Shown: positions 2,960 through 57,189 of the stretch, piece after piece | Numbering within the stretch: position 1 is the first letter of the stretch | Layout: each line of letters starts with the position of its first letter | Source of the DNA: an uncultured Bacillota bacterium | Lineage (GTDB): Bacteria; Bacillota; DTU025; MWDF01 | Direction: 5' to 3' | Length of the DNA stretch: 64,000 bases | Assembly (NCBI GenBank): GCA_963823655.1 | Contig: CAWGMK010000010.1 | Location: 52,311 to 116,310, forward strand | Notes under the pieces: model-generated | Told to the model about the DNA's origin: nothing | The model's input: only the letters and a program-made list of their open reading frames with translations | The model's database searches: none | Program-made: the position numbers and the translations under genes

Positions 2960-3195
2960 CGCCGGCGCTGGCGGCCGGATGGGGCTGATCCATCGATCAT
3001 CCCCGGCGGGTACGGGGCGGGCGGCGGGCGGCGGGCCGTCGCTGGCGGCCAGATGGGCGATCCATCGATCATCCCCGGCGGGTATGGCGTGCGGGCGGCG
3101 GGCGTCGCGCTGGCGAACCGCGCCAGATGGGCGATCAATCGATCGTCCCCGTCGGGGCCCGATAGGCAGGCGGCGGCGGCACCCTGGACGCGTAG
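2960..3195. repeat. Intergenic tandem repeat of three ~73-bp units, each carrying an atcgat(c) palindrome.
   Basis: Copies at roughly 2960-3045, 3046-3118 and 3119-3195 share gctggcggcc(a)gatggg(c)gatccatcgatcatccccggcgggta(y)gg...gggcggcgggcg. The third copy is degenerate (tcaatcgatcgtcc). Confidence 0.7.
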
Positions 3196-3559: not shown

Positions 3560-5630
3560 CTGGCCGTCGCCCGTCGCGCATCGGCATGCCCCGGCGGCCG
3601 CCCGCTCGGCCGCGCTTGCAGCACGGCCACCGAGGCGTCCTCCTCGAGCACCCGCCGGCGGATGTCCTGGATCTCGTCGCGCAGCGCAGCCGCCCGCTCG
3701 AACTCGAGCTGCTTGGCGGCCGAGCGCATCTCCGCCTCCAGCTGCGAGACGAGCTTCTCCACCTGAGCCTGGCTGAGCTCCGTGAGCTCCCTCGAGTCAG
3801 CGCCCGAAGGCACCCGGCGCCTGGGCCACGGCAGCGAGGCGGTCGTTGATGTCCCGGATCTCCTTGACGATGGTCGTCGGCGTGATGCCGTGCTCGATGT
3901 TGTAGGCCTCCTGGACGGCGCGGCGACGGTTCGTCTCCTCGATGGCGACCTGCATCGACTCGGTGACGCGGTCGGCGTACATGACGACCTCGCCGCCGAT
4001 GTTGCGCGCGGCACGGCCGATGACCTGGATGAGCGACCAGGCGCTGCGCAGGAAGCCCTCCTTGTCCGCGTCCAGGATGGCCACCAGCGTGACCTCCGGC
4101 AGGTCGATGCCCTCCCGCAGGAGGTTGATGCCGACCAGCACGTCGTAGACGCCCAGGCGCAGGTCGCGCAGGATCTGGACCCGCTCCAGGGTGTCCACCT
4201 CGCTGTGCAGGTAGCTGACGCGGATGCCCATCTCGTGGAGGTAGTCGGCGAGGTCCTCCGCCATGCGCTTGGTGAGCGTGGTGACGAGGACGCGCTCGTG
4301 CCGCTCCACGCGCTCCCGGATGCGGTCGATGAGGTCGTCGATCTGGCCCTCCGTGGGCCGCACCTCGATGGTCGGGTCGACGATGCCCGTGGGCCGGATG
4401 AGCTGCTCCACGATGCGCTCCGAGCGCTGCAGCTCCCACGCCCCGGGCGTGGCGCTCATGTGCACGACCTGGCCGAGGTGCGCCTCGAACTCCTCGAAGG
4501 TGAGCGGCCGATTGTCCAGCGCCGATGGCAGCCGGAAGCCGAACTCGACGAGGATCTCCTTGCGCGTGCGGTCGTTCTTGTACATGCCCGCCACCTGGGG
4601 GATGGTCATGTGGCTCTCGTCGACGACCAGCAGCCAGTCCGGCGGGAAGTAGTCGAGCAGCGTCCAGGGACGCGAGCCGGGCTCGCGGCGGGCGAGGTGG
4701 CGCGAGTAGTTCTCGATGCCGGAGCAGAAGCCCAGCTCGCGCATCATCTCCAGGTCGAAGGTGGTGCGCTGCCGGAGCCGCTCCGCCTCCAGGATCATGC
4801 CCTTCTGCTCGAGCTCCGCGACGCGCTCCTCCGCCTCCACCTCGATGTCCGCGATGGCCGCCACCAGCTTCTCCTGCGGGCGTGACGTAATGGGAGGCCG
4901 GGTAGACGTTCAGCTCCGTTGCGCTCGGCGAGGACCTCGCCGGTGAGCGGGTCGACCTCCGTGACGCGCTCCACCTCGTCACCGAAGAACTCGACCCGCG
5001 CGATGAAGTCGTCATAGGCGGGCTGCAGCTCCAGGGTGTCGCCGCGGACGCGGAACTTCGCCCGGCTGAGGGCCTGGTCGTTGCGCTGCGTACTGCAGGT
5101 CCACCAGCTGGCGCAGCACGCCGTCCCGGCGGTAGCGGCCGCCCGACGCGCAGGCGCAGGACCGTGGCGCCGTAGTCCACGGGCGCGCCGAGGCCGTAGA
5201 TGCACGAGACGCTGGCCACGATGATGACGTCGCGCCGCTCGAACAGGGCCCGCGTGGCGGCGTGGCGCAGCTTGTCGATCTCCTCGTTCCGGGAGGAGTC
5301 CTTCTCGATGTAGGTGTCGCTGCGGGGCAGGTAGGCCTCCGGCTGGTAGTAGTCGAAGTAGCTGACGAAGTACTCCACGGCGTTGTCCGGGAAGAAATCG
5401 CGGAACTCGCTGTAGAGCTGGGCCGCCAGCGTCTTGTTGTGCGCCAGCACGAGCGTGGGCTTGTTGACGCTGCGCGATGACCTCCGAGACCGTGTAGCGT
5501 CTTGCCCGTGCCGGTGGCGCCCAGGAGCACCTGGTGCTTGCGTCCGTCGCGGATGCCGGCCACGAGCTGCTCGATGGCCTGGGGCTGGTCACCCGTGGGC
5601 TTGAAGGGCGCCACCAACTGGAAGTCGGCC
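3560..5630 (-). CDS. uvrB: Excinuclease ABC subunit B; the 3' end is unresolved.
   Basis: N-terminus [45 protein letters not shown] begins at ~5630. The 4795..5640 frame has [42 protein letters not shown]. The 3264..5450 frame has [42 protein letters not shown]. The 3797..4864 ORF gives helicase domain 2. The UVR domain [43 protein letters not shown] lies at ~3620-3780. At least three frameshifts are apparent, and no in-frame stop follows the UVR domain. Confidence 0.9.
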
Positions 5631-5899: not shown

Positions 5900-6860
5900 A
5901 TGGAGATGGAGTTCAAGGACAACAGCCGGCGACGGACGCTGGTGCTGGTGATCGGTGTGCTGCTGGCCCTTGCGGCCGGCGCTGCCGCGTTCATGCTCAG
6001 CAGCCAGGGGCAGGAGGAGCCTGAGGCAGCCTTCCCCACGCGCGAGGTCGTCGTGGCGGCAGAGGCGATCCCCGCCCGAGCCACCATCGAGAGCCTGCAG
6101 TTGGCGCTTCGCCCCGTTCCGGTCGATGACACCACGGCATCCGCCTTCACCGACCGAGACCAGGTCGTCGGGCCAGGTCGCGGCCATCCCCATCCTGCAG
6201 TTCCAGCCCATCACGCCCAACATGCTCGCCGGGGCTGCATCGGGCCAGGTGGCCATCCTCAAGGCGGACGAGACCGTGTCGCCCGACTCGCCCGTCCTGC
6301 GGGCGGTCAGCCTGACCGTCCCGGCCGACCGCGCTGTGGCCGGCCTGGTCGCCGTGGGCCAGCACGTGGACCTCATCGCCACGATCCCCATCACGGTCGC
6401 CGGACCCGTGGACCCAGAGACCGGCGAACCGCTGACCATCGATCCCGAGACAGGCGAGCCAGTGCCCTTCGTGGAGGGCACGACCACCAAGCTCATGTGG
6501 CTCGACGTCGAGATCCTCGGCCGCGCGGAGGCATCCGACGCGTACATCGTGCGCGCGGACCTGCAGACGTCCGAGGAGATCGCGCACGCCCAGACACAGG
6601 GCGCGGAGTTCACCATGGTGCTGCGACCGGACGAGGACACGCGGGACATCGACCGCAGCACCTACGGCGAGACCACGGACACGCTCCTGACCCGCTACAA
6701 CTTCCGCGTCCCGCAGAAGATCGACGGCCTGGAGTACCCGCAGCCCCTGGCCTTCCCGAGCCCCTTCCCGAACGAACCCTACCTCTCCCCCGCGCCGGAG
6801 CCGTCGCCCAGCCCTGAGAGTGCCCTCATCGTGGCCCCCACGGAGTCGCCCGCGCCCTAG
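5900..6860 (+). CDS. CpaB/RcpC-like Flp pilus assembly protein (N-terminal TM plus SAF domain); an orphan, with no other tad genes nearby.
   Basis: [35 protein letters not shown]...[21 protein letters not shown] is followed in the second frame by [66 protein letters not shown]...[16 protein letters not shown]. There is a frameshift near 6170. Confidence 0.55.
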
Positions 6861-7547
6861 CGGCGCTCCACCGGGCCCCACGGCAGCCCGGCGAACCTCG
6901 GCGCGAGCACATCCGCGAGTGCGTCCTCGACGCACTCGCGGATCGATTCCCGGGAGCCGGACGCGTCGATGCGCCGGTCGGCGTGGGGCGCCAGGCGCTC
7001 CGCGAGATCGGGGCCCTGCGCGGCCAGGCGTCGCTCGATGTCAGCAGCGTCCATGCCCCGGAGCGCGAGCCGCTGGCGCTGGACCCCCGCCGGGCAGTCG
7101 ATGAGCCAGACCTCGTGGCAACGCGCGGCGAGACCGCTCTCGACGAGCTTGATGGCCTCGATGACGACGAAGGGGTCGCCGTCGCGGCGGCCCGCTTCGA
7201 GGCGAGCCTCGATCGCGCGCCCGGACGGCCGGGTGGACGATGGCCTCCAGGTCGCGGAGGGCCGCGGCGTCGGCGAAGACGAGCGTCGCCAGGGCCGCCC
7301 GGTCGAGCATGCCGGGCGGCTCGGAAGACGGCCTCGCCGAAGCGCGCGTGGATGGCCTCCAGGGTCGGCTGGCCGGGCGCCGTGACCTCGCGCGCGAGCG
7401 CGTCGGCGTCGATGACGACGCCACCGAGCTCGGCCAGCATGCCCGCCACGGTGGACTTGCCGCAGCCGATGGGCCCGGTGAGCCCGATGACGACCGGCCG
7501 GTCGTCCTGGTCGCCCGTCTTCTCGATGTCCGCGACCCTCCCCTCGT

Positions 7548-7551
<4 letters not shown>
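6857..7551 (-). CDS. coaE: Dephospho-CoA kinase.
   Basis: [75 protein letters not shown], then [28 protein letters not shown] and a C-terminal ...[23 protein letters not shown] in two further frames (two frameshifts). The ATG at 7549-7551 overlaps the ABC-F stop codon (ATGA overlap). Confidence 0.8.
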
Positions 7552-9629
<2,078 letters not shown>

Positions 9630-15367: not shown

Positions 15368-16429
15368 TCAGAGCCAGCCGCGATTCCGGAAGAAGGCCAC
15401 CATGCCGACGAGGATGATGGCCATGGCCAGGACGATGACCCAGAAGGCGGTGGACGTCTGCTCACCCGGGAAGAGGACGTTCATGCCGAAGATGCTGGCC
15501 ACGAGGGTCAGCGGCAGGACGATGACGCTGAAGGAGGTCAGGACCCGCAGGATGTCGTTGACGTTGTGCGAGAGGACCGACTCGTTCGTGGACTCCAGGC
15601 CCTCGATGACCTCCTTGTAGTTCTCCAGGGTGTCCCAGATGCGCTCCGAGGCGTCGATGACGTCGTCGAAGTAGACGTCCAGCTCTTCCGGCGTGGTGAT
15701 GTCCATGGCTCGCTCGAGGTCGCGGAAGGCCACGCGCTGGGGGCGCACGATGCGCCGGAAGTTGATGATCTGCTGCTTGAGGTTGGAGATGTCGCGCACG
15801 ACCTCCTCGGAACGGCCCTCGAAGATGTCGTCCTCGATCTTCTCGAGCTTCTGGCCCATCTTGCGCAGCATGGGGAACGAGGCGTCCACCGCGTGGTCGA
15901 CGATCTTGTAGAGCAGGAAGGCGGCGCCCTTCTCGAAGTAGCCCTCGCGGACCTCCTCGCTCTCCTGGCAGCGCGCGAAGAGGCTGTCGATGGGCTCCAG
16001 GTCCGCGTTGGGCATGGTGATGACGTAGTCGGCGCCGACGAAGAGGTCCAGCTCGACGACGTTGAGCCGCTCGCGGTCGCGGTCGAAGCGCGGGAACTGC
16101 AGGACCACGAAGAAGTAGTCGTCGTAGCGGTCCACCTTGGGGCGCTGGTTGCGCGAGTAGATGTCCTCGTAGTCGAGCGGGTGGAACTGGAAGCGCTCCT
16201 CCAGCCAATCCTGGTCCGCCTGGCGGGGCTTGGGGATGTGGATCCAGCGGATGCCGCTGCTGGTGACGATCGACGGGTCAGCCTGGGGCTCCTCAGGCAG
16301 CGCCAGCGTGGTCCGGCCACGGCGCACGGGGCGCACGGGCAGACGGGGCGGGCGGATGACGGGCACGTCAGGCCGCTCCCGGGAGATCGCGGGAGGCGCA
16401 GCCCACGTTTCGGTCGCGGTTCCGGTCAC
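15368..16429 (-). CDS. corA: Magnesium/cobalt transporter CorA.
   Basis: Intact 353-aa ORF with the C-terminal double TM and GMN motif: ...LTSFSVIVLPLTLVASIFGMNVLFPGEQTSTAFWVIVLAMAIILVGMVAFF. Confidence 0.85.
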   Translation of the reverse strand: MTGTATETWAAPPAISRERPDVPVIRPPRLPVRPVRRGRTTLALPEEPQADPSIVTSSGIRWIHIPKPRQADQDWLEERFQFHPLDYEDIYSRNQRPKVDRYDDYFFVVLQFPRFDRDRERLNVVELDLFVGADYVITMPNADLEPIDSLFARCQESEEVREGYFEKGAAFLLYKIVDHAVDASFPMLRKMGQKLEKIEDDIFEGRSEEVVRDISNLKQQIINFRRIVRPQRVAFRDLERAMDITTPEELDVYFDDVIDASERIWDTLENYKEVIEGLESTNESVLSHNVNDILRVLTSFSVIVLPLTLVASIFGMNVLFPGEQTSTAFWVIVLAMAIILVGMVAFFRNRGWL

Positions 16430-16561
16430 TCACGACGACATCCTCCGGAGACCATCGGCAAAGCTGGCGTTTCGCGAGTCTACACCGGCCGCGGGACCGG
16501 ACCGCCGCCGCTCCGCCAGCCGAAGCAGGAGCCGATCTGGAGACCTTCGGCGCCCGGGCGG

Positions 16562-17138
16562 TCAGCCCTTGGGACCGATGAACTCGTCGAGGATGGCGAC
16601 GCTCCGACGGTGGGCGATGGAAACGTCATAGCGGCGGTTGGGCCGACACTCCACGCCGATCATCCCGCACACGTGGACGAAGATCCCCATGATGTCCGCG
16701 GAGCGGTTCGTGAAGAAGTAGCGAGGGTACTCGTACCGCGTGCCGATGCGGTTCCGGACGCGGTTCGTGACCCGACAGCCGTCGGAGTGGATAAGACCCT
16801 TGACCAGCTCCCGCGGGTACGACTCGACGAGGTCCCACTGCCAGGGTTCGAGCTCGATCCTGCGGAGGTGCTTGGGGCCCGGGCCGACCTGTGGGAAGAC
16901 GCACGGCCAGTGCTTCCAGTAGCAGTTGATATCCACGCAGCCGATGCGGCTCACGACGCCGGGCTTCTTGCCGGTGACCTCGGCGATGGCCGCCTTGCAG
17001 CTGCTCGATGAGCCCCGGGTACCGGCTGTCCTGTGAGATGCGGAGCCTCCACACATCGCGGGCACCACGCGAGATGACACCATCACCCAGATAGAGACCC
17101 AGCAGATACACATACGCACGATCGAGGCCACGAGTCAT
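16562..17138 (-). CDS. Small two-motif LAGLIDADG-family homing endonuclease-like protein (~190 aa), directly downstream of tRNA-Leu.
   Basis: Motif 1 MTRGLDRAYVYLLGLYLGDGVISRGARDVWRLRISQDSRYPGLIEQL (frame of 16626..17432). Motif 2 ...YPRELVKGLIHSDGCRVTNRV (frame of 16562..17131). Both keep the penultimate Asp and Gly of LAGLIDADG. There is one apparent frameshift between the motifs. Confidence 0.5.
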
Positions 17139-17204
17139 CGATGCAGAGCGTTGGCTCAGGTGGCACAGCCCGGCACCGGGGCCGCGACTCGGACTGATCG
17201 CTTG

Positions 17205-17289
17205 GTGCGGCGGGTGGGATTCGAACCCACACGTCCTTTCGGACAATGGATTTTGAGGCCATCGCGTCAGCCGTTGCGCCACCGCCGCA
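17205..17289 (-). tRNA. tRNA-Leu (anticodon CAA), type II with a long variable arm; the CCA is encoded.
   Basis: Minus-strand read: GCGGCGG-TG-GCG-CAACGGCTGA-CGC-G-ATGGC-CTCAAAA-TCCAT-TGTCCGAAAGGACGT-GTGGG-TTCGAAT-CCCAC-CCGCCGC-A-CCA. It has a 7-bp acceptor stem with one G·U pair, a GTTCGAATC T-loop and a variable-arm stem GTCC/GGAC. Anticodon-stem pair 31·39 is a C·U mismatch. Confidence 0.8.
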
Positions 17290-17515
17290 GGGCCTCCACT
17301 ATAGCGGAGGCTGATGGGGCGAGTAATAGAACATCTATTCGATTCCGGCAAGTGGCTTTCCGAGCCAGACCCAGCCGTCCTCAGGCGTTGGCCGCGTGGC
17401 TGTGTGGGGCTCGACTGCCACCTTCGCCCCACCGTGCCGAACGGCTAGCGGCCGCAGGACGGCGCGCGCATACTGCGCCGCATCGACCGCAGGGTCGTCG
17501 CATGGAGGCTGACCC

Positions 17516-17899
17516 ATGACGCGCGTGCTCGTCGTCCACCACGACATCGACCTGGCTGACCAGGAGGTCGACTCCCTGAGGCGGATGGGCTACGAGCCCG
17601 TGGAGTGCTCGGGTCCATCCGGCTACTCCTGCCCCGTCCTGCGTGGCGAGCACTGCCCGGCCGTCCAGGACGCGGACGTGCTCGTCTACGACGTCTGGTC
17701 GACGATGGAATCGGGCAGCGGTCGTTCCCTCATCGAGGGCCTGCGAGAGCTCCATCCGGATATCCCCATCGTGCTCACGGCCCCTGGCATGGAGCTCGAC
17801 TGGGTGGAGGTGGAAGGCGCCCACAAGGTCGTGCCGCTGGTGGGCATCCCCACCGCAGAGAAGCTGGACGCGGCCATCAAGGAGGCCCTGGCCAGGTAG
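17516..17899 (+). CDS. Stand-alone receiver (CheY-like) fold protein with a Cys-rich insertion and no output domain.
   Basis: MTRVLVVHHDIDLADQEVDSLRRMGYEPVECSGPSGYSCPVLRGEHCPAVQDADVLVYDVWSTMESGSGRSLIEGLRELHPDIPIVLTAPG. It has the VLVV..D acidic pocket, a DADVLVYDV acceptor-like Asp and IPIVLTA. The insert is C-x6-C-x7-C plus His. Intact ORF. Confidence 0.5.
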   Translation: MTRVLVVHHDIDLADQEVDSLRRMGYEPVECSGPSGYSCPVLRGEHCPAVQDADVLVYDVWSTMESGSGRSLIEGLRELHPDIPIVLTAPGMELDWVEVEGAHKVVPLVGIPTAEKLDAAIKEALAR

Positions 17900-19687: not shown

Positions 19688-22255
19688 CCTCATGGCTGAC
19701 GCCGATCCGGCCCCGAGCCCGGAGTCGCCACCCGGGCGCGCGGCCCCCGACCTTGACGCCGACACGCCTGTCGACCTGCCGCCCACCCTGCCCAGCGGCC
19801 TGAGCGAGGAGGAGGCCGCCGATCGGCGCGCCCGAGGCCTCGGCAACGTGGCTCCTCCGGCCACCACGCGCACGTACACGGCCATCGTCCGCGAGAACGT
19901 CTTCACCTTCGTCAACAACGTCCTCTTCCTGATGGGCCTTGCCCTGGTCCTCGTGGGCCGGCCCTTCGACGCCTTCGTCTCCCTTGCCGTCATCAGCACC
20001 AACATCCTGGTCGGCATCGTCCAGGAGGTGCGCGCCAAGCAGACGCTGGACCGCATCGCCCTGCTCACACGGCCGACGGCCAAGGTCGTGCGCGACGGCG
20101 ACGTGCGCGAGGTGCGACCGGAGGAGCTCGTCGTCGGCGACCTCATCGCCGTCGAGGCCGGCGACCAGATCGTCGTGGACGGCCGATTGGCGGAGGGCCG
20201 CATCGAGGTCGACGAGTCACAGCTCACCGGGGAGTCGGACCTGGTGCCGAAGCGGCCGGGCGACCGGGTCTTCTCAGGCAGCTACCCGACCTCCGGGCGG
20301 GGCCGCTACGTGGCGGAGACGGTCGGCGAGGCCAGCCTGGCCGGCCGCATCACGACCGGGGCGCGCACGTTCCGACGCACGTTGACGCCATTGCAGCGCG
20401 AGATCCAGACCGTCATCCGGGTGACGCTGGCCATCGTGCTGTACCTGCAGCTGCTGCTCGTCGTCAAGAACGTCCTGCTTGACGTGCCGCTCGACGAGGC
20501 CGTCATCGAGGCCACCGTCCTGGTCGGCCTCATCCCCAACGGCCTCTTCGTGTCCATCGCCATCGCCTACGCCCTGGCGGCCGTGCGCATGACCCGCTAC
20601 GGCGCGCTGGTGCAGCAGGCCAACGCGGTCGAATCGCTCAGCCACGTGGACATGCTCTGCGTGGACAAGACGGGCACGCTCACGGCCAACCAGCTGGAGC
20701 TTGAGCAGATCGTGCCGCTGGAGGGCGAGGAGGCCAGCGCGCGCGCGGCCGTGGCGCTCATGGTCGCCAGCAGCGCCGCCCTCAACAAGACCAGCGAGGC
20801 CATCGCCGCCGCCGTGCCGGTGGCGGGTCGCGCGCCGATCGAGGAAGCGCCGTTCTCGTCAGCCCGCAAGTGGAGCGCGGTCAGCCTGCCGCCTGGCGAT
20901 GAGCCCGATGCCGCGCCGGGCGGCACGTACGCCATGGGCGCGCCGACCTTCCTGCAGCGCTATCTCGCGGTGAGCGATGCGGAGTGGCGCAACATCGAGG
21001 GTCTCGTGGCCCACCACGCCGCACAGGGCATGCGGGTCCTGCTGGCCGCCTGGAGCCCGGATGCGACGACCTTGGTCGACGAGGGCGATGCCTCCGTCCT
21101 GCCGGCTGACTCACGGCCCTACGCGCTCATCGTCCTGCGGGACGTCCTGCGCCAGGACGCGGCCGAGACCCTGCGGCGCTTCCGTGACATGGGCGTGGAC
21201 GTGCGCGTCATCTCCGGCGACGACCCGGACACGGTGGCCACGCTGGCGCGCCAGGCCGGCCTGGACACGAGCCGGGGCGTGGTCTCCGGTCCCGAGCTGG
21301 AGGCCATGGACGACGACCGTTTCAGCAGCGTCGCCGAGCGGACGGCTGTCTTCGGCCGCATCACGCCCGCAGCTCAAGGAGCGGCTCGTGGGCACCTTCC
21401 GCGAGCAGGGGCACTACGTGGCCATGACCGGGGACGGCGTCAACGACGTGCTCTCGCTGAAGCGCTCCAACCTGGCCATCGCCATGGGCAGCGGCAGCCA
21501 GGCGACGCGCGGCGTGGCGGACCTCATCCTCATCGACGATGGCTTCTCGGCCCTGGCCTCGGCCATCGGCGAGGGCCAGCGCATCCTCAACGGGATGCAG
21601 GACATCCTGCGCGTCTTCCTGACCCGCATCCTGTCGCTGGGCATGCTCATCGTCTCCGCCCTGGTCATCGGCTTCTTCCCGGTCGACCTGCGCAACGCCT
21701 CGGTCATCACGCTCTTCACGGTCGGCATCCCCACCGCCCTGCTGGCCATCTGGGCACGGCCCGGTCGCCTGCCCCGGGAGACGCTCCAGCAGACGCTGGC
21801 GCGCTTCGTCGTGCCCCCGGCGGCCGTGGCCTCCTTCCTGGGCCTCCTGGTGGCCGCGGTCGTGCTGCTCATGGCCGAGGCGGACCGCGACGCCGGCCTC
21901 GTCGAAGCGGCGAGCGTGGAGCCCCTGGCTCGCACGGCCGTGACGGCCTTCCTCGTCAGCGTCGGCCTGCTGCTGCTGCTCTTCGTGGAGCCGCCGACCG
22001 ATCGTCTCGCGGTCATCGAGCCCGTCTCGCCGGACAGGCGGCCGAGCCTGGCTGGCGCTGATCCTGGCGATCGCCTTCGCCATCGTGCTGGTCGTGCCGC
22101 CCCTGCGGGCCTTCTTCAATCTGCACCCCCTGGGTCCGCGCGAGGTGCTCGTCGTGCTCGTCGGCCCTGGCGGCGTGGGCGGCCCTCGTGTGGGTCTTCT
22201 GGCGGGGGCGCTTCGTGGACCGCTTCCTGGGCGTCGCCCCACCGGCGACCCCTCG
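19668..22255 (+). CDS. Cation-transporting P-type ATPase (HAD-like P-domain).
   Basis: TGES motif (ESQLTGESDLVPK), phosphorylation site DMLCVDKTGTLTANQ, hinge MTGDGVNDVLSLKRSNLAIAMG (20977..23148 frame) and a C-terminal TM region ending ...LRAFFNLHPLGPREVLVVLV...WVFWRGRFVDRFLG (22085-22385 frames). There are at least three frameshifts. Confidence 0.85.
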
Positions 22256-29109: not shown

Positions 29110-29829
29110 ATGTCCTGGATCAGTGGGCATCCTCAGGACCTCGCCATGCCGGCCAGGGTCCGACGGGTCGATCGAGGGTCTCAGAACGGGCGTCACCTGC
29201 TTGGCACGCTCGCGACCGAGCTTCGAGTCGCCCGTCGCGAGGCTGGCCTGAGCCAGACGAGCGTCGGCCGCGCCGCGGGGATCAGCGGCGGCCACGTTGC
29301 GCGTCTTGAACGCGGAGAGGTGAGCGGCGCTTCGGTCATGCTCTACTCGCGACTGTTCGCCGTGCTTGGACTGCGCCTGAGCGCGCGCGCCTATCCGGAT
29401 GGTGCACCGGTGCGGGACGTCGCCCATCTCCAGCTCCTCGCACGGTTCCGGGCCACGCTGCCGCCGACCATCAGGCTGCGGACGGAAGTCCCGCTGCGAC
29501 TCGACCGCGACCTGCGGGCGTGGGATGGCGAGCTGGAAGTCGTCGGCGGCGTGGAAGCCTCCGGAGCGGGGCGTCGCAGTACATGCAAGCTTGAGGCGGA
29601 GACAGTCCTCTACGACCTCCAGTCGCAGGAACGCCGGGTCGCCCTGAAGATGGCCGATGACCGCGTCGACCGCGTCATCCTCCTGGTGGCAGACACCCAT
29701 CGCAATCGGCGAGTCCTCCGGGAGTTCCGCGAGCAGCTGATGGCTCGCTTCCCGCTCGGCACCGCGGCAGTCATGCGCGAGCTGCGAGCGGGTCGATTGC
29801 CCGGGCGAAGCGGGATCGTCATCCGCTGA
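29110..29829 (+). CDS. XRE-family HTH transcriptional regulator with an uncharacterised C-terminal domain.
   Basis: HTH: LATELRVARREAGLSQTSVGRAAGISGGHVARLERGE. The C-terminal ~150 aa carries a D/E...E.K pattern (RAWDGELEVVGGVEASGAGRRSTCKLEAE) that may be nuclease-fold-like. Intact ORF. Confidence 0.6.
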   Translation: MSWISGHPQDLAMPARVRRVDRGSQNGRHLLGTLATELRVARREAGLSQTSVGRAAGISGGHVARLERGEVSGASVMLYSRLFAVLGLRLSARAYPDGAPVRDVAHLQLLARFRATLPPTIRLRTEVPLRLDRDLRAWDGELEVVGGVEASGAGRRSTCKLEAETVLYDLQSQERRVALKMADDRVDRVILLVADTHRNRRVLREFREQLMARFPLGTAAVMRELRAGRLPGRSGIVIR

Positions 29830-29903
29830 CAGGTGGAGGGCGAGCTGCGAGCGGGTCGATTGCCCGAGCGAAGCGGGATCGTCATCCGCTGACACGTGGA
29901 GGA
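29774..29903. repeat. Perfect-adjacent tandem duplication (2 x ~65 bp) of the XRE gene 3' end, including its stop codon.
   Basis: gcgagctgcgagcgggtcgattgcccgGgcgaagcgggatcgtcatccgctgacaGgtggagg is followed directly by gcgagctgcgagcgggtcgattgcccgAgcgaagcgggatcgtcatccgctgacaCgtggagg. Confidence 0.85.
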
Positions 29904-37131: not shown

Positions 37132-40100
37132 CTACGTCCTGGCCAGTCGATGCCGACGGATGAGCCATGCGCCGCTGACGATCATCATGGCCGCGACGAG
37201 GACGATGAAGGCCCAGCCCGTCGGGCCCCCAAGGAATCCACCTGACGTCGACGCGGCCTCGGTCGCGAGGAGTGTGTCCGTGGACGGCTGCTTGTCGCCG
37301 TCACCTGCGCCACCGCCGCTTCCGCTCTCGTCATCGCCAGCGCCGCCATCCCGGACGGGGACGATGCGGATGAAGGCCTGGGCAGTCGCGGAGATGACCG
37401 TGACCGCTGTATCGCGGAACTCTCCAGCCAGCAGGGCCTCCTCGTCGTCAGTGACCGTGACGGTCACGGTGTTCACGTGACGGTCGCCAGCCTGCCCGGT
37501 GACGAAGGCCGTGAACTGGCATTCGTATGTCGCGCCGGCGGCGATGAGGTCGCCGACCGAGTTCGCGCACGTGTTGTTCGTGAGATCCCGATTGCGTGGG
37601 TCATCCAGGTCGCCCAGCAGGTCGTCGCTCAGGGCCACGATGCCGAGGCTCTCGGGAACGAGGTTCTGGATGGTGATGGTGAAGGTCACGTCGCCACCCG
37701 GCTCTTCCAGCCTGGTCACGGACGGGGTCTTGGTGACCGCGATGGCAGGCACGATATCCGTGATCGTCACCGTCGCGTCGTCAGACGCGACGGCCTGGCG
37801 ACCCTCGAGCGTGGCGGCCCTGGCCGTGACCACGTCGGTCTCGACCGTCCCGCCGACCCCACCCACGAATGCGGTGAAGGCGCAGGCGTAGGTCGCTCCA
37901 GGCGCCAGTGACTGCGGCACGGCGCACGTCCCCTTGCCGTTCACGTCGCCGTGGACGTTGTCCACCAGGCTCGTGAGCGAGACGGCCACATTGCCGGTGT
38001 TGGTGACGCTGACGGCGAAAGAGACGTCCCCGCCCGGCTCGGGGACGGAGCCCGGAGTGGCGGTCTTGGTGACGGAGATCGTGGGGGTCGAGCGGATCTT
38101 GAACGTGGCCGTGGCCGCGTTGTCAGCCGGATCCGGGTCAGTGGTCTGGCTCGAGACGGTGGCGCTGTTGGAGACGGTCGTCAGGTCGAGGTAGGTGCCG
38201 GGTACGACGGTGGCGTTGACCGTGATGGTGGCGTCGACGCCGACCGGGTGGCTGGCGATCGTGCAGGTGAGCGTGTTACCGACGATCGGCGCGCAGGTGT
38301 ATGGCCCGTCATCGACGACGGTGACGCCCTGGAGCTGCGCTGGGAACGTGTCACTGAGGGTGGCGTCGGCTGCGTCGGAGGGACCGGCGTTGGAGACGCT
38401 CAGGGTGTAGGTGACGCTGCCGCCCGAGACGGTCTCGGCCGGGGTGACGCTCTTGGTGACCGAGAGGTCGGCGACCGCTCCCACCTCCACCGACGCCGTG
38501 TCGCTGTTGGGCAGGGCGTCGGGGACCTGTGGGGTGCGCGCCGCCACCGTGGCCGTGTTGGGGATCGACCGCGCCGTCAGGGAGGCCCACCGGCACGACC
38601 GCGGTCAAGGTGACCGTGGCCGTCGAGCCGGCCGCCATCGTGGCGGCGTCGCAGGTCAGCACGAACTGGGTGCCGGGGGGCGCCAGCGTGCAGCCGAGCG
38701 ACGGCGGCGTCACCGTGCCAAGCGTGACCTGGGTGAAGACAGCCGGGAACGAGTCGGTCACCACGACCCCGCTGGCATCGCTTGGGCCCGCGTTGGTCAC
38801 CGTCAGCGTGTAGGTGATCGTCTGGCCGGCGGCGACAGCCACCGGGTCCGGGTTGCCATCCTGCCCCTGCACCTGTTTGACGATGCCGAGGTCGGCCTGG
38901 GCGACCAGCGGGGTGTCGGCGCAGGCGACGTTGTTCGATGAGTCGCTGATCGCGGCTGCGGCCGTCAGCGTGGGGGCGACCTGACGGCACGTTGGATCGG
39001 GCGGTGCTGGATCGTCGGGGTGATCGAGGACCGCGAGGTTGGGGTAGCCGGCTCCCGGGTCGGGGGCCGTGCTCGCGTCGGCACGAGCCCGCAGCACCAC
39101 CGTCGCCGTGGCACCGGCGGGCAGCGCCGCCGCCGGGATGGTGCAGGTGATGGTCTGGCCACTCGGCGCGGCGCAGGTCACGCTGGCCGTCGATGCCGTC
39201 GTGTCGAGCGGCGTAGGTGCGAACGAGAAGCCGGTCGGCAAGGTGTCGGTCACGGTGGCATCGCCAACCACCCCGCTCGTGCCGAGGTTCTCAACCGTGA
39301 TCGTGTACGGGAAGGCCGCTCCACCGGCCACGGCCGGTGTGGTGTCCGTGCCGTCGCGGAAGACCTTGGTCAGAGCCAGGTCGAACGTCTTCAGGTAGGC
39401 GACATCGGCGTTGTCGGTCTGGACGGGGTCGCTGGTGAGACCCGACACCGTGGCGCTGTTCGGGAACGGCGCCGTCGCAGTGACCGGGTCCGCCGCCGTA
39501 GCGGTGAACACGATCGAGCCCGCCGACCCGACCGCCAGCGTGGCGGCCCGGCAGGTGACCGGGACATCGAGCGGCTCGCCGGCCGCGGCCGTCCCGCCGC
39601 CGGCCCGGTCACAGGTCAACCCGGCCGGTGCGCTGACGAAGAGCACGGGCGTCACCAGGTCGCTGGCCAGCGGGTCGATGACGGTCACGCTCTGCGCCAC
39701 CGACGGCCCGTTGTTCGTCACCCGCAGGGTGAACGTCACGGGCTGAGCGGGAATGATCCCTTCCGCCGTGGCGGGCGTCTGGGCGTCGTTCGGCGTCGTG
39801 CCGCCCGGGCCGGTCGCCAGCTTCGGTGACCGAGAGGTCGGCGGATGTGGCCACGGTGGTCGTGGTGGTCGCGCTGTCGTTGGCAGCGTTCGGATCGCTG
39901 GTCGCCGCGGAGACGGTGGCCGTGTTGCTGATGACCGTGCCGGCGGCGACACTCGCCCCGACCTGGACGATGAGCGTGAAGGTCTGGGTGGCACCGGCGG
40001 CCAGGCTGGCGATCGTGCAGGTGACGGTGCCGTTGCCCCCCACGGCGGGCGTCGTGCAGCTGAAGCCTGCGGGCGCGGTGAGCGAGACGAAGGTCGTGCC

Positions 40101-42759
40101 CGCGGGCAGGGTGTCGGTCAGGCTCACGCTCTGGGCGGCGTTGGGACCGGCGTTGGCGACGGTGATGGTGTAGGTGAGGTTCGCGCCGGCGATGACCGGG
40201 TCGGGACTGTCGGTCTTGGTGATCGAGAGGTCGGCGGAGGTGGCCACGGTGGTGGTGTCGGTGGCGGTGTTGTTGGCCGGGGTCGGGTCGGTGGTCGAGC
40301 TCGAGACGGTGGCCGTGTTGGCCTGAGGGCCCGCCGGGGTCGAGGCTGGCACCGTGTAGGTGACGACCAGCGTCGTGGTGGCACCGGCCAGGATGGGCCC
40401 GAGGGCACAGTCGAAGCTCGGACCGCCTCCGACGTCGGTGCAGGCGGCGGGCAGCGAGGTGCGCGTGAAACCGGCCGGCCAGGTGTCGGAGAGGCTCACC
40501 GCTTGGGCATTCGAAGGTCCGTTATTGATGACGGTGATGGTGTAGGTGCGCGTGGCGCCGTCACCGGCGGTCACGGTGGCGACTCCGTCGCTCTTGGTGA
40601 CGGAGAGGTCGGCGGACGTGGCCACGGTATTGGTGTCGGTGGCGGTGTTGTTCGACGCGTTCGGGTCGCTGGTCGAGCTCGAGACGGTGGCCGTGTTGGC
40701 CTGAGGGCCCGCCGGGGTCGAGGCTGGCACCGTGTAGGTGACGACCAGCGTCGTGGTGGCACCGGCCAGGATGGGCCCGAGGGCACAGTCGAAGCTCGGA
40801 CCGCCTCCGACGTCGGTGCAGGCCGCGGGCAGCGAGGTGCGCGTGAAACCGGCCGGCCAGGTGTCGGAGAGGCTCACGCCGGTCGCCGTGCTGGGCCCCG
40901 CGTTGCGCACCGTGATGGTGAAGGTGCGGGTCAGGCCGTCACCGGCGGTCACGGTCGTGACCCCGTCGCTCTTGGTGACCGAGAGGTCGGCGGATGTGGC
41001 CACGGTGGTCGTGGTGGTCGCGCTGTCGTTGGCAGCGTTCGGATCGCTGGTCGCCGCGGAGACGGTGGCCGTGTTGCTGATGACCGTGCCGGCGGCGACA
41101 CTCGCCCCGACCTGGACGATGAGCGTGAAGGTCTGGGTGGCACCGGCGGCCAGGCTGGCGATCGTGCAGGTGACGGTGCCGTTGCCCCCCACGGCGGGCG
41201 TCGTGCAGCTGAAGCCTGCGGGCGCGGCGAGCGAGACGAAGGTCGTGCCCGCGGGCAGGGTGTCGGTCAGGCTCACGCTCTGGGCGGCGTTGGGACCGGC
41301 GTTGGCGACGGTGATGGTGTAGGTGAGGTTCGCGCCGGCGATGACCGGGTCGGGACTGTCGGTCTTGGTGACCGAGAGGTCGGCGCGGAGCGCCGGATCC
41401 AACAGCAGGGTCACAGGCGACGCCGTGCACGACGAGCCGTTGCCCGTGCAGGTGCGTGTGTCGGAGGATTGTGGGACCGAGCTGTAACCCGGAGCTGATG
41501 CCGTCAACGTGACCGTCGCCGGACCGCGCCCGGGGTACGTGACGCTGACCGAGAAGCCCCCGGTGGCGTTGGTGCTGGTCCCCCCACCCGTATACGACAC
41601 GGTGGGAGAGTTGTTGCAGCCCGTGCACGTGGCCGTGACGGTTGCGCCGGCGATGAGTGGGGTGCCTGTCGGATAGGTTGCGACCGAGCCGGTGATCGTG
41701 ACATTCGATTGCGGCGTGATGATGAGGTCCTCGGCGGCCATCTTGCTGGCGCTGACAGACATGTCATCCGCCGGTCCGACCTGCGCCGTCGGCTGACCGA
41801 CTGCGTCCGTGGTCGACTCCGCGGCCGCACCCATGTCAGCCGCCGGCGCTTCGTGGGGAGTCGCGTCGAACACGCTCTTGCCGGCCGTGGCACCGCCTTG
41901 TTCGCGCTGTGCGACGGCGTCACTCGCAGCCGCTGAACGTGCGGCACTGATGGTCAACTCAGCCTTGGCAGTCAACTTGTCGAGCGTGGCTACGACCTCG
42001 GTGGCGCCGATGACGGCCACGGCGGCGAGGCGCACGTCGTTGGCGTCTGGCGCTTCGAACGAGGCGACACCCTCATCCCTGACCGACCAACGGACGTCCG
42101 TGGCTGGCGAGCATGCGTCGGACTGGCCGGGCTCCTGGTCGGACCCGGGTCCGGCGCCATCGCCGGACGTGGTGCAGAGCCAGGCCGAGAGCTTGGCCAC
42201 ATCACCCACGACCAGGTCGAGCTTGCGCGGCTGGGAGTCGATGACGAGCTTGCGCTCGGGCTCGGCGGGGGCGACGTCGGGCGCAGGCTCGACTGGAGCC
42301 TGCTCGGCCTTGGGCTCGGCGGCCGGCTCCCGGTCGGGCGCCGTGTCGGGCTTCTGTTCCTTATCGGCCTTCGGTCCCTGTGCCCTGGGCTCGGGCGCCG
42401 GTTCCTGCGTCGTGGGCTCGGGCGCGGCCTCCTGGGCGGGCGCAGCCTGGGGCTCGGGCTCGGACGTTGGGCGGATCGGCGGGAGCCGGTGCGGGCTCCG
42501 AAGCCTGGACCTCCGCGGCAGGGGCGGGCTCCTCGGCGGCCACCTCGGGCTCGGGTGCCGGCGATGGCTCGGCAGCGACAGGCTGGGCAGAGGCGTCCGC
42601 CTCCGCATCCTGGGCGATGACCAGCGCCGGGGTCAGCAACAGCGACGACGTCAGCAGGATGACCTGCAGGACGGCCAGCAGGGCGGCCAGGCGGTGGACG
42701 CGCGGGGACACGGAGGTGCTCGGAGCCAAATCGCTTCTCCCGTGGAAACCAGCGGTCAT
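37132..42759 (-). CDS. Giant cell-surface protein A (~1870 aa): signal peptide, small N-terminal domain, Pro/Glu/Lys/Ala-rich linker, many DUF11-type Ig-like repeats and a C-terminal QPSTDTL-TM-RR anchor tail.
   Basis: Signal ...RVHRLAALLAVLQVILLTSSLLLTPALVIAQD. N-domain KLVIDSQPRKLDLVVGDVAKLSAWLCT. DUF11 units ADLSVTKTDSPDPVIAGANLTYTITVANAGPNAAQSVSLTDTLPAGTTFVSL...; one ~130-aa unit is duplicated nearly identically. Tail ...GDGDKQPSTDTLLATEAASTSGGFLGGPTGWAFIVLVAAMMIVSGAWLIRRHRLART*. There are several frameshifts. Confidence 0.7.
39810..40200. repeat. Internal near-identical direct repeat within giant protein A (copy 1); it pairs with 40960-41350.
   Basis: The six-frame ORFs 39826..40173 and 40738..41322 share the identical string MTERSADVATVVVVVALSLAAFGSLVAAETVAVLLMTVPAATLAPTWTMSVKVWVAPAARLAIVQVTVPLPPTAGVVQLKPAGA.SETKVVPAGRVSVRLTLWAALGPALATVMV. 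Confidence 0.75.
40960..41350. repeat. Internal near-identical direct repeat within giant protein A (copy 2).
   Basis: See copy 1. A second shorter pair is 40124..40408 versus 40571..40786 (identical MPSGPSWPVPPRRWSSPTRCQPRPRRALRPTRPPSRAR in six-frame). Confidence 0.75.
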
Positions 42760-43016
42760 CGACGCTGGTGGATGATGACAGACGGAGCGAACCGTACCAA
42801 GAAAGCCCCGCACGGTTCGCTGCTGGCGCGAGACGATACTCGAGCCACGGCGCTTTCCGCACCGGGCCTGATAGTCCACCGGAGCCGTAGTACTTTCCCG
42901 AGCCCGCGGTCCGCGACGCCTCAGGCCCTCCACCGAGGCCCCGAAAAGCCGACGGCCGGGTCCCTGGTGGGAGCCCGGCCGTCGGGAGTGTCGCGATGGA
43001 TGCTGGCTAGATCTCG

Positions 43017-46000
43017 GAGGTGCGGACCCTCCGGATGACCCAGCCCGCGGACAGGATGACCGTGGCCGACATCAGGATCGATGAGGATCCAGTTCATCGG
43101 GCTGTCGAGCGGACCGCTCGCGGCCGACACGGTGTCGGTCGGGATGAGCGTGTCCGTGGGAGGCTGGCCACCGCCGCCACCGCCACCACCAGCACCGCCG
43201 ATCCAACCGATCTCCTCATCATCCTCGGCGCAGACCCTGTCGGACTGGCTCTGGGAGGGACCGGCCACGGCACAGGCCGTGAAAGTATTGACGTGCGGGA
43301 TGGTGTCCTGCGGCGGATCGGCGACCACTTCCGGCTCGACGAAGAACGTCGCTTCGAACTGGCACGAGGCACCCGCCGGCAGCGTCACGCCGACCTGGCA
43401 GTCCGCATCACCCTGGAGGGCTCCGAAGTCGGAGTCGACGAGTGACACGATGCTGACCGGGACCTTCGACGTGTTGGTCACGGTGAAGGTGAAGGTGACG
43501 TCCTCACCCTCGATGTCGGCGATGGGCGTGTCGGCCGTCTTCACGACCGCCAGCTTGATGGCCGGGATGTCGAGGTCGTCGCAGACCTCAGGGGTCTGGT
43601 CGGAGTCGGCGCAGGCGGTGTTCAGGACATCGCCCTTGTCGAGGTCGGCCTGGGTGATGGTGTGGCTGCCGGTGCAGGTGATGCTGGCACCGGGCGCCAG
43701 GGATGCCACCGGGACGGTCGGGCTGCAGACGAAGTTGTCGAGCTTCACCGTGAGCAGCTTGTCGGTCACGACCACATTGGTAAGCGGGTAGTTGCCGATG
43801 TTGGTGGCCTTCACGGTGTACGTGATGACGTCGCCGACCGCGTCGTACGTCTGCACGTTGGAGGTCTTGACGATGGAGAGCTCGGACTCGTAGACGCGCT
43901 CGTCATCGCAGACCGGCTTGGATGTCTGCGCGCTGATGGCGCAGGCCGTATTGGGGATGGACTTGTTGGCGTTGTCCACGTCAGCCTGGGTGACGGTATA
44001 CGTCGCCTTGCAGACGATGGCCTTGCCGGGTGCCAGGCTGGCCACCGGGAGGGTGACGGCCGCACCGTCAACGGTGCAGGCCCAGCTGGCAAGTTGCGGG
44101 ATGAGCGGGTCGCTGACGCCCACGTTGGTGAGCGTGGCGGCGCCGACATTGGTGGTCGTCACCGTGTAGGTGATGAGGTCACCGGCCTTCGAGTAGAACG
44201 CCGGGCTGGCCGACTTCACCACGCTGAGCTTGGCGAACAGGTTCGTGAAGGTGCACTTCACGGTCTCGCCCGCGTCGAGCTTGAAGGTTGCCTTGCGATC
44301 GACCAGGCTGCCCGAGCTTGGGTTCTGGCTCTGGCCGTCATCGCAGACGATCGAGTCGAGGACCCAGTCTGGGGTCACAGCTTCAGTCGAGGTGTACGTG
44401 CCGGGCACGAGGTTGCCGACCACGATCTGGCCGTTGTCGGCGATGGAGCCAGCAGCGTCACCGGTGAAGGTGAACGTCTGAGGGGAGTCAGCGGGGTTGG
44501 TCTGCTTCTCGACGATGATCGTGCCGCGCTGGGTGTTGGTGAAGACGCAGGTGACGGTCTCACCGGGATCGAGATCGATCTCGTCGGCGGCCTCGGTGCC
44601 CTCGATGGAGCTCGTGCAGACCGTGCTGGTCAGATCCCAGCCGGCAGGCACGGTCTCGGAGACCGAGTAGGTGCCGGGGGTCAGGAACCCGCTGTCGTGC
44701 GGGGTCGTGGCATCGGCGAGCTGGAAGTCAGCGCCCCAGCTCGGGTCGAAGGTGAAGAGCTGCGGTGAGCCGCTCGGGTCCGTGACCTTGTCGACGATGA
44801 TCGTGCCGCGCTGCGTATTGGTGAAGACGCAGGTGACGGTTTCACCGGCCGCGATGACCGCCTGCACGGTCGTGTCACCGGCGTCGAAGTCGGCGTCGCC
44901 CACGAAGCCTGCGCCGGTGCCGGTGCCGATCAGATGGCGGCCCCATTGGCGGTGCAGACGATGTTGGTGAGCGTGTAGCCGGGCTTCGCCGTCTCCGTCA
45001 CGTACTTGGTCCCGAGTTCGAGACCGGTGAAGGGGAACGGGGCGTTGGCCGTCGGGTTGGTGACCGAGGTGTCGCGGTTGAACGGCGAGAGGGCCGAGCC
45101 TTCGACCGTGTAGGCGAAGGTCGCGGGGGCACCCACGGTGGTCTTCTCGATGTCCAGGGAGGCGTTCTGGGTGTTGGTGAAGACGCAGGTCGGGGTGTTC
45201 CCGGCCGCGATGACCGCCTGCACGGTCGTGTCACCGGCGTCGAAGTCGGCGTCGCCCACGAAGCCTGCGCCGGTGCCGGTGCCGATCGAGATGGCGGCCC
45301 CATTGGCGGTGCAGACGATGTTGGTGAGCGTGTAGCCGGGCTTCGCCGTCTCCGTCACGTACTTGGTCCCGAGTTCGAGACCGGTGAAGGGGAACGGGGC
45401 GTTGGCCGTCGGGTTGGTGACCGAGGTGTCGCGGTTGAACGGCGAGAGGGCCGAGCCTTCGACCGTGTAGGCGAAGGTCGCGGGGGCACCCACGGTGGTC
45501 TTCTCGATGTCCAGGGAGGCGTTCTGGGTGTTGGTGAAGACGCAGGTCGGGGTGTTCCCGGCCGCGATGACCGCCTGCACGGTCGTGTCACCGGCGTCGA
45601 AGTCGGCGTCGCCCACGAAGCCTGCGCCGGTGCCGGTGCCGATCGAGATGGCGGCCCCATTGGCGGTGCAGACGATGTTGGTGAGCGTGTAGCCGGGCTT
45701 CGCCGTCTCCGTCACGTACTTGGTCCCGAGTTCGAGACCGGTGAAGGGGAACGGGGCGTTGGCCGTCGGGTTGGTGACCGAGGTGTCGCGGTTGAACGGC
45801 GAGAGGGCCGAGCCTTCGACCGTGTAGGCGAAGGTCGCGGGGGCACCCACGGTGGTCTTCTCGATGTCCAGGGAGGCGTTCTGGGTGTTGGTGAAGACGC
45901 AGGTCGGGGTGTTCCCGGCCGCGATGACCGCCTGCACGGTCGTGTCACCGGCGTCGAAGTCGGCGTCGCCCACGAAGCCTGCGCCGGTGCCGGTGCCGAT

Positions 46001-56650: not shown

Positions 56651-57188
56651 CGGCATCGCCCACGGCGCCGCCGTTGTCGATGGCCACGTCCACGAGCTCG
56701 TGGAGCCCGGCGGCCCCGGGTCCCGCGCCGAGCCGGACGACGCGTGGCGCAGGCTGGTGATGGCGATGGTCCGCACCCCGGCCTCGCTCGCCGCGCGCGC
56801 CATCTCGCGGCTGACCGCGTTGCTGCCCGAGTTGGACGCGATGAGCAGCACATCACCGGGCGCCATGGCGTGGTCCGCGGCCAGCGCAGCGGCGAGCCCG
56901 GGCAGCCGCTCCAGGGCCGTGCTGAGCGCCGTGCTCCCGTGAAGCGTCAGGCCCTCGAACAGGATGGCCGGACCCGGACCAGGCCGCCGGCGCGGTGGAA
57001 CAGCTCCTCCCGCGATGATGGCGAGTGCCCGAACCGAAGCTGTGGATGGTCCCGCCGGCGGCGAGCGCATCGGCCATCAGCGAAGCCGCCGCGTCAATTC
57101 GCGGCCACTCCTCGGTGCCGAGGCGGGCGACGAGCTCCTCCGCGATCCGGAGGTAGCGCTGGCCGGCGGACGCACGCTCGCTCGTCAT
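56560..57188 (-). CDS. SIS (sugar isomerase) domain protein, GmhA-like.
   Basis: MTSERASAGQRYLRIAEELVARLGTEEWPRIDAAASLMADALAAGGTIHSFGSG. Then ALERLPGLAAALAADHAMAPGDVLLIASNSGSNAVSREMARAASEAGVRTIAITSL. Then [40 protein letters not shown] in shifted frames. The ATG (rc of cat at 57186-57188) abuts the GC-content break at 57189. Confidence 0.6.
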
Positions 57189-57189
57189 A

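Follow-up and report, generated by a model that had tools for sequence, protein, structure and literature searches.

What does a LAGLIDADG-type gene do when it lies outside any intron or intein, directly behind a leucine tRNA gene? This question is raised by a 64,000-nucleotide stretch of contig CAWGMK010000010.1 from an uncultured Bacillota bacterium (hereafter the window, meaning the whole of this stretch), in which such a gene follows tRNA-Leu(CAA) on the minus strand. The original prediction for this locus regarded the gene as either a domesticated homing endonuclease or the remnant of an integrated element, with the adjacent tRNA as a plausible landing site. Our comparative analyses lead us to favor, with some reservation, another answer: a promoter, the tRNA-Leu(CAA) gene and a free-standing, monomeric LAGLIDADG gene would together constitute an intron-less, selfish homing cassette.

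The insertion site and the displaced tRNA

Relatives of the window locus were fetched through the flanking CorA gene. Five loci are occupied (the window, L100, L101, L102 and L201), and in all but L101, whose contig stops short, the cassette tRNA, the nuclease gene and CorA follow each other on one strand; in the window and in L201, a conserved open reading frame (ORF) of 127 amino acids lies upstream of the cassette on the opposite strand. Eight loci are empty (L103, L106, L108, L110, L111, L202, L203 and L204). They are without the nuclease gene and carry a tRNA-Leu(CAA) of a different allele, on the opposite strand and 100-160 nt upstream of CorA. Both genes that flank the cassette in the window are common to the empty locus L204 and the occupied locus L201; the 127-amino-acid ORF is 84% identical in both (tblastn) and neighbors the tRNA site in both. 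On the other side, homology to the empty sites restarts at the leader of CorA (GGTGTAGACTCG...), which we used as the landmark for the right boundary of the cassette. The features concerned lie in the window as follows.

15368-16429, minus: CorA magnesium transporter gene (Pfam CorA, 219 bits; alignments)
16562-17138, minus: LAGLIDADG endonuclease-type gene, a short form without the N-terminal helix-turn-helix (HTH), in two frames (97% identical to the intact P0001; fold)
16562-16999, minus: C-terminal segment in the +1 frame, with the linker block, motif 2 and the stop (sequence; conservation)
17000-17006, minus: frame break, one extra base relative to in-frame relatives (alignments with L100 and L201)
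17007-17138, minus: N-terminal segment in the frame of the ATG at 17138, with motif 1 (sequence)
17133-17135, minus: second single-base length difference (alignments with L100 and L201)
17203-17288, minus: cassette tRNA-Leu(CAA) (ARAGORN; Rfam tRNA, 51.2 bits)
17298-17303, minus: -10-like hexamer TATAGT, likely the cassette promoter (read from the sequence)
17402-17433, plus: degenerate remnant of the resident tRNA-Leu(CAA), comprising the T-arm and the 3' strand of the acceptor stem, GTGTGGGGCTCGACTGCCACCTTCGCCCCACC (alignment of occupied and empty sites; shuffles)
17516-17899, plus: conserved 127-amino-acid ORF (tblastn; no Pfam match)

The remnant lies beside the 127-amino-acid ORF, in the position and orientation of the resident tRNA and opposite to the cassette tRNA. 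Its local alignment scores are 28 in the window and 27 in L201, and none of 2000 shuffles reached either value. The acceptor strand of the remnant, CTTCGCC, resembles the resident CTTCGGC and not the CCGCCGC of the cassette tRNA, and the homology ends at the 5' edge of the T-stem. Because this 3' remnant survives, the displaced resident tRNA can be named as the landing site: according to the alignments, some 1 kb of cassette DNA inserted into the resident tRNA-Leu(CAA) gene and took the place of most of it.

The tRNA that stands next to the nuclease gene today has a different origin. It is 100% identical to that of L100 and 92% identical to that of L102. Its identity to the gene-linked tRNAs of Chloroflexota metagenome-assembled genomes (MAGs) is 84-88% for L001-L003 and 72-78% for L004-L007, and only 73-77% to the resident tRNAs at the empty sites of its own lineage. 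The acceptor stems differ (GCGGCGG in the cassette, GCCGAAG in the residents), as do the anticodon stems and variable arms. Since the window tRNA is closer to the gene-linked tRNAs of L001-L003 than to the residents of its sister loci, this evidence says that the adjacent tRNA is foreign cargo that arrived with the nuclease gene, rather than its target. The idea of a tRNA gene as the landing site thus holds in so far as a tRNA gene was hit, but the adjacent one was not the gene in question. The occurrence of occupied and empty alleles of one site, together with a foreign linked tRNA, argues for mobility.

The cassette tRNA itself, the only tRNA that ARAGORN finds in the window, has a long variable arm, A73, an encoded CCA and the acceptor stem GCGGCGG/CCGCCGC. 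It is a class II tRNA and scores 51.2 bits against the Rfam tRNA model (cut-off 29). A canonical tRNA-Leu of this class has a paired anticodon stem, but here the 31:39 position, flagged as non-standard, is C31·U39. ARAGORN and Rfam agree on this tRNA, as had been proposed. The suspicion that the mismatch is a sequencing error can be set aside: C31·U39 is real, for L201, L003 and the independent assembly L100 have it too. A31·C39 is found in another 34 gene-linked tRNAs. Altogether, position 31:39 is non-Watson-Crick in 37 of the 106 collected tRNA(CAA) genes (A·C in 34, C·U in 3) and in none of the five empty-site tRNAs included in this count. The TATAGT hexamer, 9 nt upstream of the tRNA, is likely the cassette promoter, and the promoter-region block GCTATAGTGGAGG is kept in L100 and L102, and almost so in L201. 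A consensus sigma-70 promoter scan around the cassette found no promoter and did not flag TATAGT; a terminator scan of the same region found nothing.

The protein family and its association with tRNA-Leu

The conceptually repaired window protein, read through the frame break, was used for protein searches. Single-sequence searches of Pfam, NCBIfam and the PDB were uninformative, and a profile and a structure model were required. Among 60 family members, 31 match a LAGLIDADG Pfam family at E<=1 (lowest value 5.7e-6), P0243 and P0144 narrowly exceed the gathering score, and the profile search of the PDB gave weak matches only, all to LAGLIDADG enzymes. An AlphaFold2 model of P0003, built with 60 homologs, consists of two α-β-β-α-β-β-α units (predicted local distance difference test 94; predicted template modeling (TM) score 0.90). 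Its top 50 Foldseek matches in the PDB are all LAGLIDADG proteins with probability 1.00, the best being I-Tsp061I (TM score 0.71), and the identity to solved LAGLIDADG structures is 8-18%. The catalytic Asp is present in motif 1 of 241 out of 245 members and in motif 2 of 253 out of 261. Based on the model, the Foldseek matches and the retention of both aspartates, the protein has a divergent, monomeric, two-domain LAGLIDADG fold and is encoded by a free-standing, nuclease-type gene, in line with the original prediction.

Most members carry an N-terminal homeodomain-like HTH, which the short window form lacks. The most conserved part of the protein is a nearly invariant block between the domains, WKHW.C.FPQHGPG.KH.R (16868-16918 in the window), for which we know of no counterpart. 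Its many Cys and His residues may mark a metal site; a further motif, CPRC, lies between the HTH and domain 1 in some members. The family is large, with at least 8000 homologs of the repaired protein in a large protein collection and, in a representative library, at least 3156 clusters at 50% identity with E≤1e-3, 672 of them with E≤1e-30. No fewer than 585 species genomes have it, and it resides mostly on the chromosomes of bacteria from the Actinomycetota and Chloroflexota. PHROGs and PADLOC returned weak matches to generic endonuclease models only. In the searchable literature, we found no account of the family, of its tRNA linkage or of the class I-shaped Streptomyces tRNA-Leu(CAA) described below.

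The association with tRNA-Leu was surveyed in 80 species-level genomes that carry the gene. Strict-motif ORF finding and integrity calls based on the longest ORF fail at such GC content, and tblastn was used instead. A tRNA-Leu gene adjoins the nuclease gene in all 80 genomes, with the anticodon CAA in 79 and TAG in one. Many database homologs even start with "…VRKDVWVRIPPAAP", which is frame 3 of the tRNA-Leu gene read through by gene callers. In the Chloroflexota and the window, this survey places the tRNA 45-53 bp upstream on the same strand, and in most Streptomyces loci about 250-280 bp upstream, with the HTH extension in the gap; the tRNA lies downstream or on the opposite strand in some Acidimicrobiia and other Actinomycetota. 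Four phage-like IMG/VR contigs also carry members (38-39% identity), directly after tRNA-Leu genes: either a tRNA-Leu(TAA) that closes a tRNA cluster (L205-L207) or a tRNA-Leu(CAA). Given the TAG and TAA neighbors, the association is therefore with tRNA-Leu genes in general.

Several loci depart from the common arrangement. The TAG exception is L054 (5631-6534), from Mycolicibacterium llatzerense, in which the tRNA is on the opposite strand. L208 (1220-9701), part of a 78-kb viral contig of 34% GC, contains an array of leucine tRNAs (TAA, CAA, AAG, TAG, TAG), several of them only 73-76 nt long, with interspersed HNH-type endonuclease-like ORFs; its LAGLIDADG ORF (4704-5504) runs in frame through the tRNA(CAA), in the order HTH, tRNA and LAGLIDADG core. 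L035 (5215-6564, Embleya) and L052 (5184-6570, Kitasatospora) have two divergent LAGLIDADG genes in tandem behind one tRNA(CAA), which may be stacked cassettes.

In 58 of the 80 loci, the gene and its tRNA lie between an ANTAR response regulator of the PdtaR type and pyruvate kinase. Streptomyces loci were sampled solely via four PdtaR proteins that are widely shared, and each of the 39 has the gene or what is left of it. Within these four identical-PdtaR groups, the 39 loci have 14 distinct tRNA(CAA) alleles, and class II tRNAs (84-85 nt) coexist with class I-shaped ones (74-76 nt) in three of the four. Identity is 90-100% in the flanking DNA but only 35-60% between types across a block made up of the tRNA, the spacer, the HTH and LAGLIDADG domain 1; the C-terminal half of the gene is 73-93% identical and mosaic. 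The ratio of non-synonymous to synonymous substitution rates (dN/dS) is 0.07-0.47 within a type and below 1 everywhere. Five of the 39 copies are decayed according to tblastn (two frameshifts, an in-frame deletion of motif 2 in two genomes, and one truncation). Constant occupancy, fast allele turnover, purifying selection on intact copies and recurrent decay fit a homing cycle in which rival alleles, and not full and empty sites, compete. By its own account, the original prediction would be refuted if all orthologous loci carried the gene in a conserved housekeeping context. In the window lineage they do not, given the eight empty sites; in Streptomyces they do, but at a hypervariable locus unlike a housekeeping one.

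The class I-shaped tRNA(CAA) is widespread, being present in about 60 of the first 80 loci (within L010-L079) and in L081-L099, L185, L188 and L198. These tRNAs are 74-78 nt long, have a 5-nt variable loop and score 52.6-56.6 bits with the Rfam tRNA model. Among 75 loci, there are 41 distinct sequences, with compensatory double changes in 13 of 20 cloverleaf pairs and an invariant A73. Sister genomes have class II alleles at this very site, so that the short tRNAs probably represent allelic replacements of class II tRNA-Leu(CAA). At L084 (3316-3399), ARAGORN reports an 84-nt class II tRNA-Leu(CAA), yet the Rfam search at the gathering threshold did not return it, although the tRNAs of the seven other loci came up.

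To our knowledge, the long variable arm is otherwise universal in bacterial tRNA-Leu. We tentatively suggest, as a conjecture that may well prove wrong, that competition between rival cassettes has remodeled UUG decoding, such that the sole reader of UUG in many Streptomyces would be a cassette-borne, class I-shaped tRNA of 74-78 nt. Its arm would have been lost to remove the variable half-site of the nuclease at the junction of the variable arm and the T-stem, and the 31:39 non-pairs would likewise be escape changes.

The window copy and its surroundings

The nuclease gene of the window begins 64 nt after the 3' end of the tRNA, at the ATG at 17138, and lies on the same strand; the original prediction had put the spacer at about 67 bp and had omitted that this strand is the minus strand. 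Its motifs and coordinates are otherwise correct. Motif 1, YLLGLYLGDG, is at 17079-17108 with the catalytic Asp codon GAT at 17082-17084, and motif 2, GLIHSDGCR, at 16772-16798 with the catalytic Asp codon GAC at 16781-16783. The two motifs are however in different frames, so that the single ORF of about 190 amino acids that had been proposed does not exist. The frame of ATG 17138 encodes MTRGLDRAYVYLLGLYLGDGVIS..., and the +1 frame encodes the invariant linker block WKHWPCVFPQVGPGPKH (16868-16918) and the context of motif 2, ...LVKGLIHSDGCRV..., up to the stop TGA at 16562-16564.

The independent Logan assembly L100 represents the same locus at about 98.5% identity, with the gene in one frame (= P0001). 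Over about 930 nt, L100 lacks three single bases that the window has, and two of these (17135 and 17006) fall inside the gene. At the break, the extra base is G 17006 relative to L100, or C 17000/17003 relative to L201; at the second difference, which brings ATG 17138 into the frame of motif 1, it is A 17135 relative to L100, or T 17133 relative to L201. L201 reads GAC-CGT and GAG-AGC at these sites (DDR, IESC) and L100 reads G-CTCGT and ATC-AGCAGC, and the window is at both sites the exact intermediate between the consensus-like relative and L100. An assembly artefact can be argued for because the window is rich in indels, probably as a result of long-read metagenome assembly, and argued against because random error is unlikely to recreate an intermediate state twice. 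We regard an artefact and a real frameshift, with a pseudogene, as roughly equally probable. The window copy may thus be inactive or misassembled; the identity of the element is unaffected. Programmed +1 frameshifting at 17000-17006 was considered and rejected, as every sufficiently close relative is in frame there.

Other genes of the window change frame as well. A neighboring P-type ATPase (21311-21430, plus) switches near 21360, just before GDGVND, with the motif in the +1 frame, and its HAD domain is cut at position 140 of 191 of the Pfam profile. An ABC ATPase and a CoaE-like kinase go off-frame after recognizable starts (53201-55156 and 6826-8301). A heuristic based on third-position GC content counts about 13 same-strand frame switches without a stop codon in the 64 kb, and gene calls are fragmented on sister long contigs too.

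On the CorA side of the cassette, the leader (about 16430-16530) keeps GGTGTAGACTCGC ... CCGGGAGG.AGTCGTCGTG in relatives with 75-93% identical CorA, and this conserved stretch is probably the promoter and start region of the gene. The nearest named CorA, at 82% identity, is from an Anaerolineae MAG; an exact look-up of the window CorA protein returned no record. Elsewhere, the window contains several very large, internally repetitive genes for surface-type proteins (37132-46561 and 56964-59018), with modules that end in 'TATVSS.TSDPN..NN.AT' and 'ITQADIDAGFVYNIATADS' modules. Short tandem repeats are present at 29777-29902 (two 63-nt units, 97% identity), and three copies of GATCCATCGATCATCCCCGGCGGG are spaced by 72-74 nt at 2987-3161.

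Competing explanations and known systems

In the mechanism that we propose, the nuclease would cut a rival tRNA-Leu(CAA) gene, and repair of the break would copy the cassette in, destroying the resident tRNA. The cassette tRNA, which differs in the acceptor stem, the anticodon stem and the variable arm, would escape cutting and restore UUG decoding, so that the insertion would be tolerated. We infer DNA cleavage by the family from analogy, and the probable place of the cut, near the junction of the variable arm and the T-stem, from the insertion scar and the precedent of the T4 endonuclease SegB. Domain 2, itself conserved, may recognize the conserved T-arm side, and the variable HTH and domain 1 the allele-specific side; differences on the latter side would presumably confer immunity on the linked tRNA. 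Later spread among relatives could use the shared flanks.

Several observations do not sit easily with this mechanism. The cassette tRNA itself contains the T-arm half of the presumed target, and self-immunity would accordingly have to come from the other half-site. Cassettes of the window lineage point the opposite way to the resident tRNA, and the 5' two-thirds of the resident left no significant trace on the CorA side; a simple homology-templated conversion from a syntenic donor therefore cannot account for the founding insertion there. Other occupied loci yielded only two marginal T-arm-like matches as resident remnants. Searches of plasmids and cultured phages found no homolog. The LAGLIDADG_3 match that the original prediction expected from Pfam was found, but at 15.4 bits it is below the cut-off of 22.5. 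Finally, full occupancy and purifying selection in Streptomyces also fit a host function. Separately from these points, a 5' remnant between the nuclease stop and CorA (GCGCCGAAGG...CTTCGGC) was noticed by eye; its 12-mer had a p of about 0.03 and the other tests were not significant, and we do not claim it.

A host function could take the form of a domesticated, WhiA-like LAGLIDADG protein that binds DNA and regulates or services the adjacent tRNA-Leu(CAA), the co-variation of the two reflecting cognate recognition. The occupation of a fixed site in 39 of 39 Streptomyces loci, dN/dS below 1 in all parts of the gene, the HTH fused to most members and the composition of the variable block (tRNA, HTH and domain 1) would all suit such a protein, and one source labels a member 'transcriptional regulator'. 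We nevertheless consider it unlikely. Both catalytic Asp residues are kept, whereas they are lost in WhiA (PMC3384342), and the eight empty sites imply that the tRNA does not need the protein. Moreover, 13% of the Streptomyces copies are decayed, close relatives have very different alleles, the resident tRNA was destroyed on arrival and members occur in phage tRNA clusters. The retained aspartates, the empty sites and the decayed copies also disfavor the domesticated endonuclease of the original prediction. Less likely still is a nuclease that guards its locus or addicts its host by cutting incoming DNA with other tRNA-Leu alleles, such as phage tRNA clusters or integrating elements, and so serves defense or exclusion rather than homing. 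High occupancy and diversifying alleles are reminiscent of defense loci, and related genes do stand beside tRNA-Leu in phage-like contigs; yet the matches to defense models are weak, sub-significant and all to generic homing endonuclease models, there is no sign of a benefit to the host, and the scar in the resident tRNA is explained by invasion and not by guarding.

The remaining explanation, that the gene is cargo or a remnant of an integrase-type island inserted at the 3' end of a tRNA, is largely refuted, and we hold it to be very improbable. tRNA genes are classical attachment (att) sites, and a fragment of a tRNA 3' end does lie near the insert. This fragment, however, runs opposite to the intact tRNA and stems from another allele. 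The direct repeat of the tRNA 3' end, proposed as a check for an att site, is absent from the window within 3 mismatches, a general repeat search found nothing relevant, and the insert of about 1 kb holds no integrase or further gene between its unchanged flanks; the larger integrated element of the original prediction is not borne out. The homing cassette thus remains the explanation that we favor.

If this explanation is true, the family would be a very widespread group of free-standing LAGLIDADG homing genes on bacterial chromosomes, spreading by destroying and substituting a tRNA gene of the host. tRNA-Leu(CAA) is normally ultra-conserved; the cassette would account for its 14 alleles among near-identical Streptomyces genomes, some of them without the long variable arm. 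It would also provide a testable example of selfish DNA shaping the translation apparatus, and many natural pairs of nuclease and target with differing specificity that are usable for meganuclease engineering. The locus is, in addition, a marker for recombination and gene flow in Streptomyces.

The monomeric LAGLIDADG enzymes of archaea and organelles, such as I-Tsp061I, I-DmoI, I-AniI and I-SceI, differ from the cassette gene, which is not in an intron or intein, has the invariant WKHW.C.FPQHGPG.KH.R block and mostly an N-terminal HTH, and is linked to a tRNA cargo. WhiA/DUF199 has lost the catalytic acidic residues, cannot cut DNA and has a C-terminal HTH (PMC3384342). Like WhiA, the family combines a LAGLIDADG scaffold with an HTH in Actinomycetota and is present in all sampled Streptomyces. 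Unlike WhiA, which is characterized by lost catalytic residues, a C-terminal HTH and one conserved copy per genome, it keeps both Asp residues, its HTH is N-terminal or absent, and it shows presence and absence as well as allelic turnover, the gene being missing from eight sister loci.

The yeast HO endonuclease is host-controlled and derived from an intein. It is a free-standing LAGLIDADG enzyme whose break replaces one allele cassette by another at MAT (PMC3384342, for the concept). The cassette family resembles HO in the free-standing LAGLIDADG gene and in cassette replacement at a fixed locus, but shows no sign of host control, and its donor is foreign DNA where HO draws on silent copies.

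Among known systems, T4 SegB is functionally the closest precedent. This free-standing GIY-YIG endonuclease from a phage tRNA cluster has a 27-bp site that takes in the conserved TΨC segment of one tRNA gene, and it drives the inheritance of itself and of neighboring tRNA genes (PMC2330249). The cassette would work alike without being a member of that family. As with SegB, a free-standing nuclease gene lies by tRNA genes and a tRNA allele is co-inherited, here as judged by sequence comparison; the insertion scar ends at the edge of the T-stem, which recalls the TΨC site, and members are found in phage-like tRNA clusters. In contrast to SegB, the nuclease is LAGLIDADG and not GIY-YIG, resides mostly on bacterial chromosomes, and would, by presumed cleavage, replace a single host tRNA of an essential type. 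Read as a homing cassette, the family is an instance of intron-less homing by a free-standing endonuclease, unusual in bringing a replacement tRNA with it, in saturating a chromosomal locus throughout a large genus and in perhaps having altered the shape of that tRNA.

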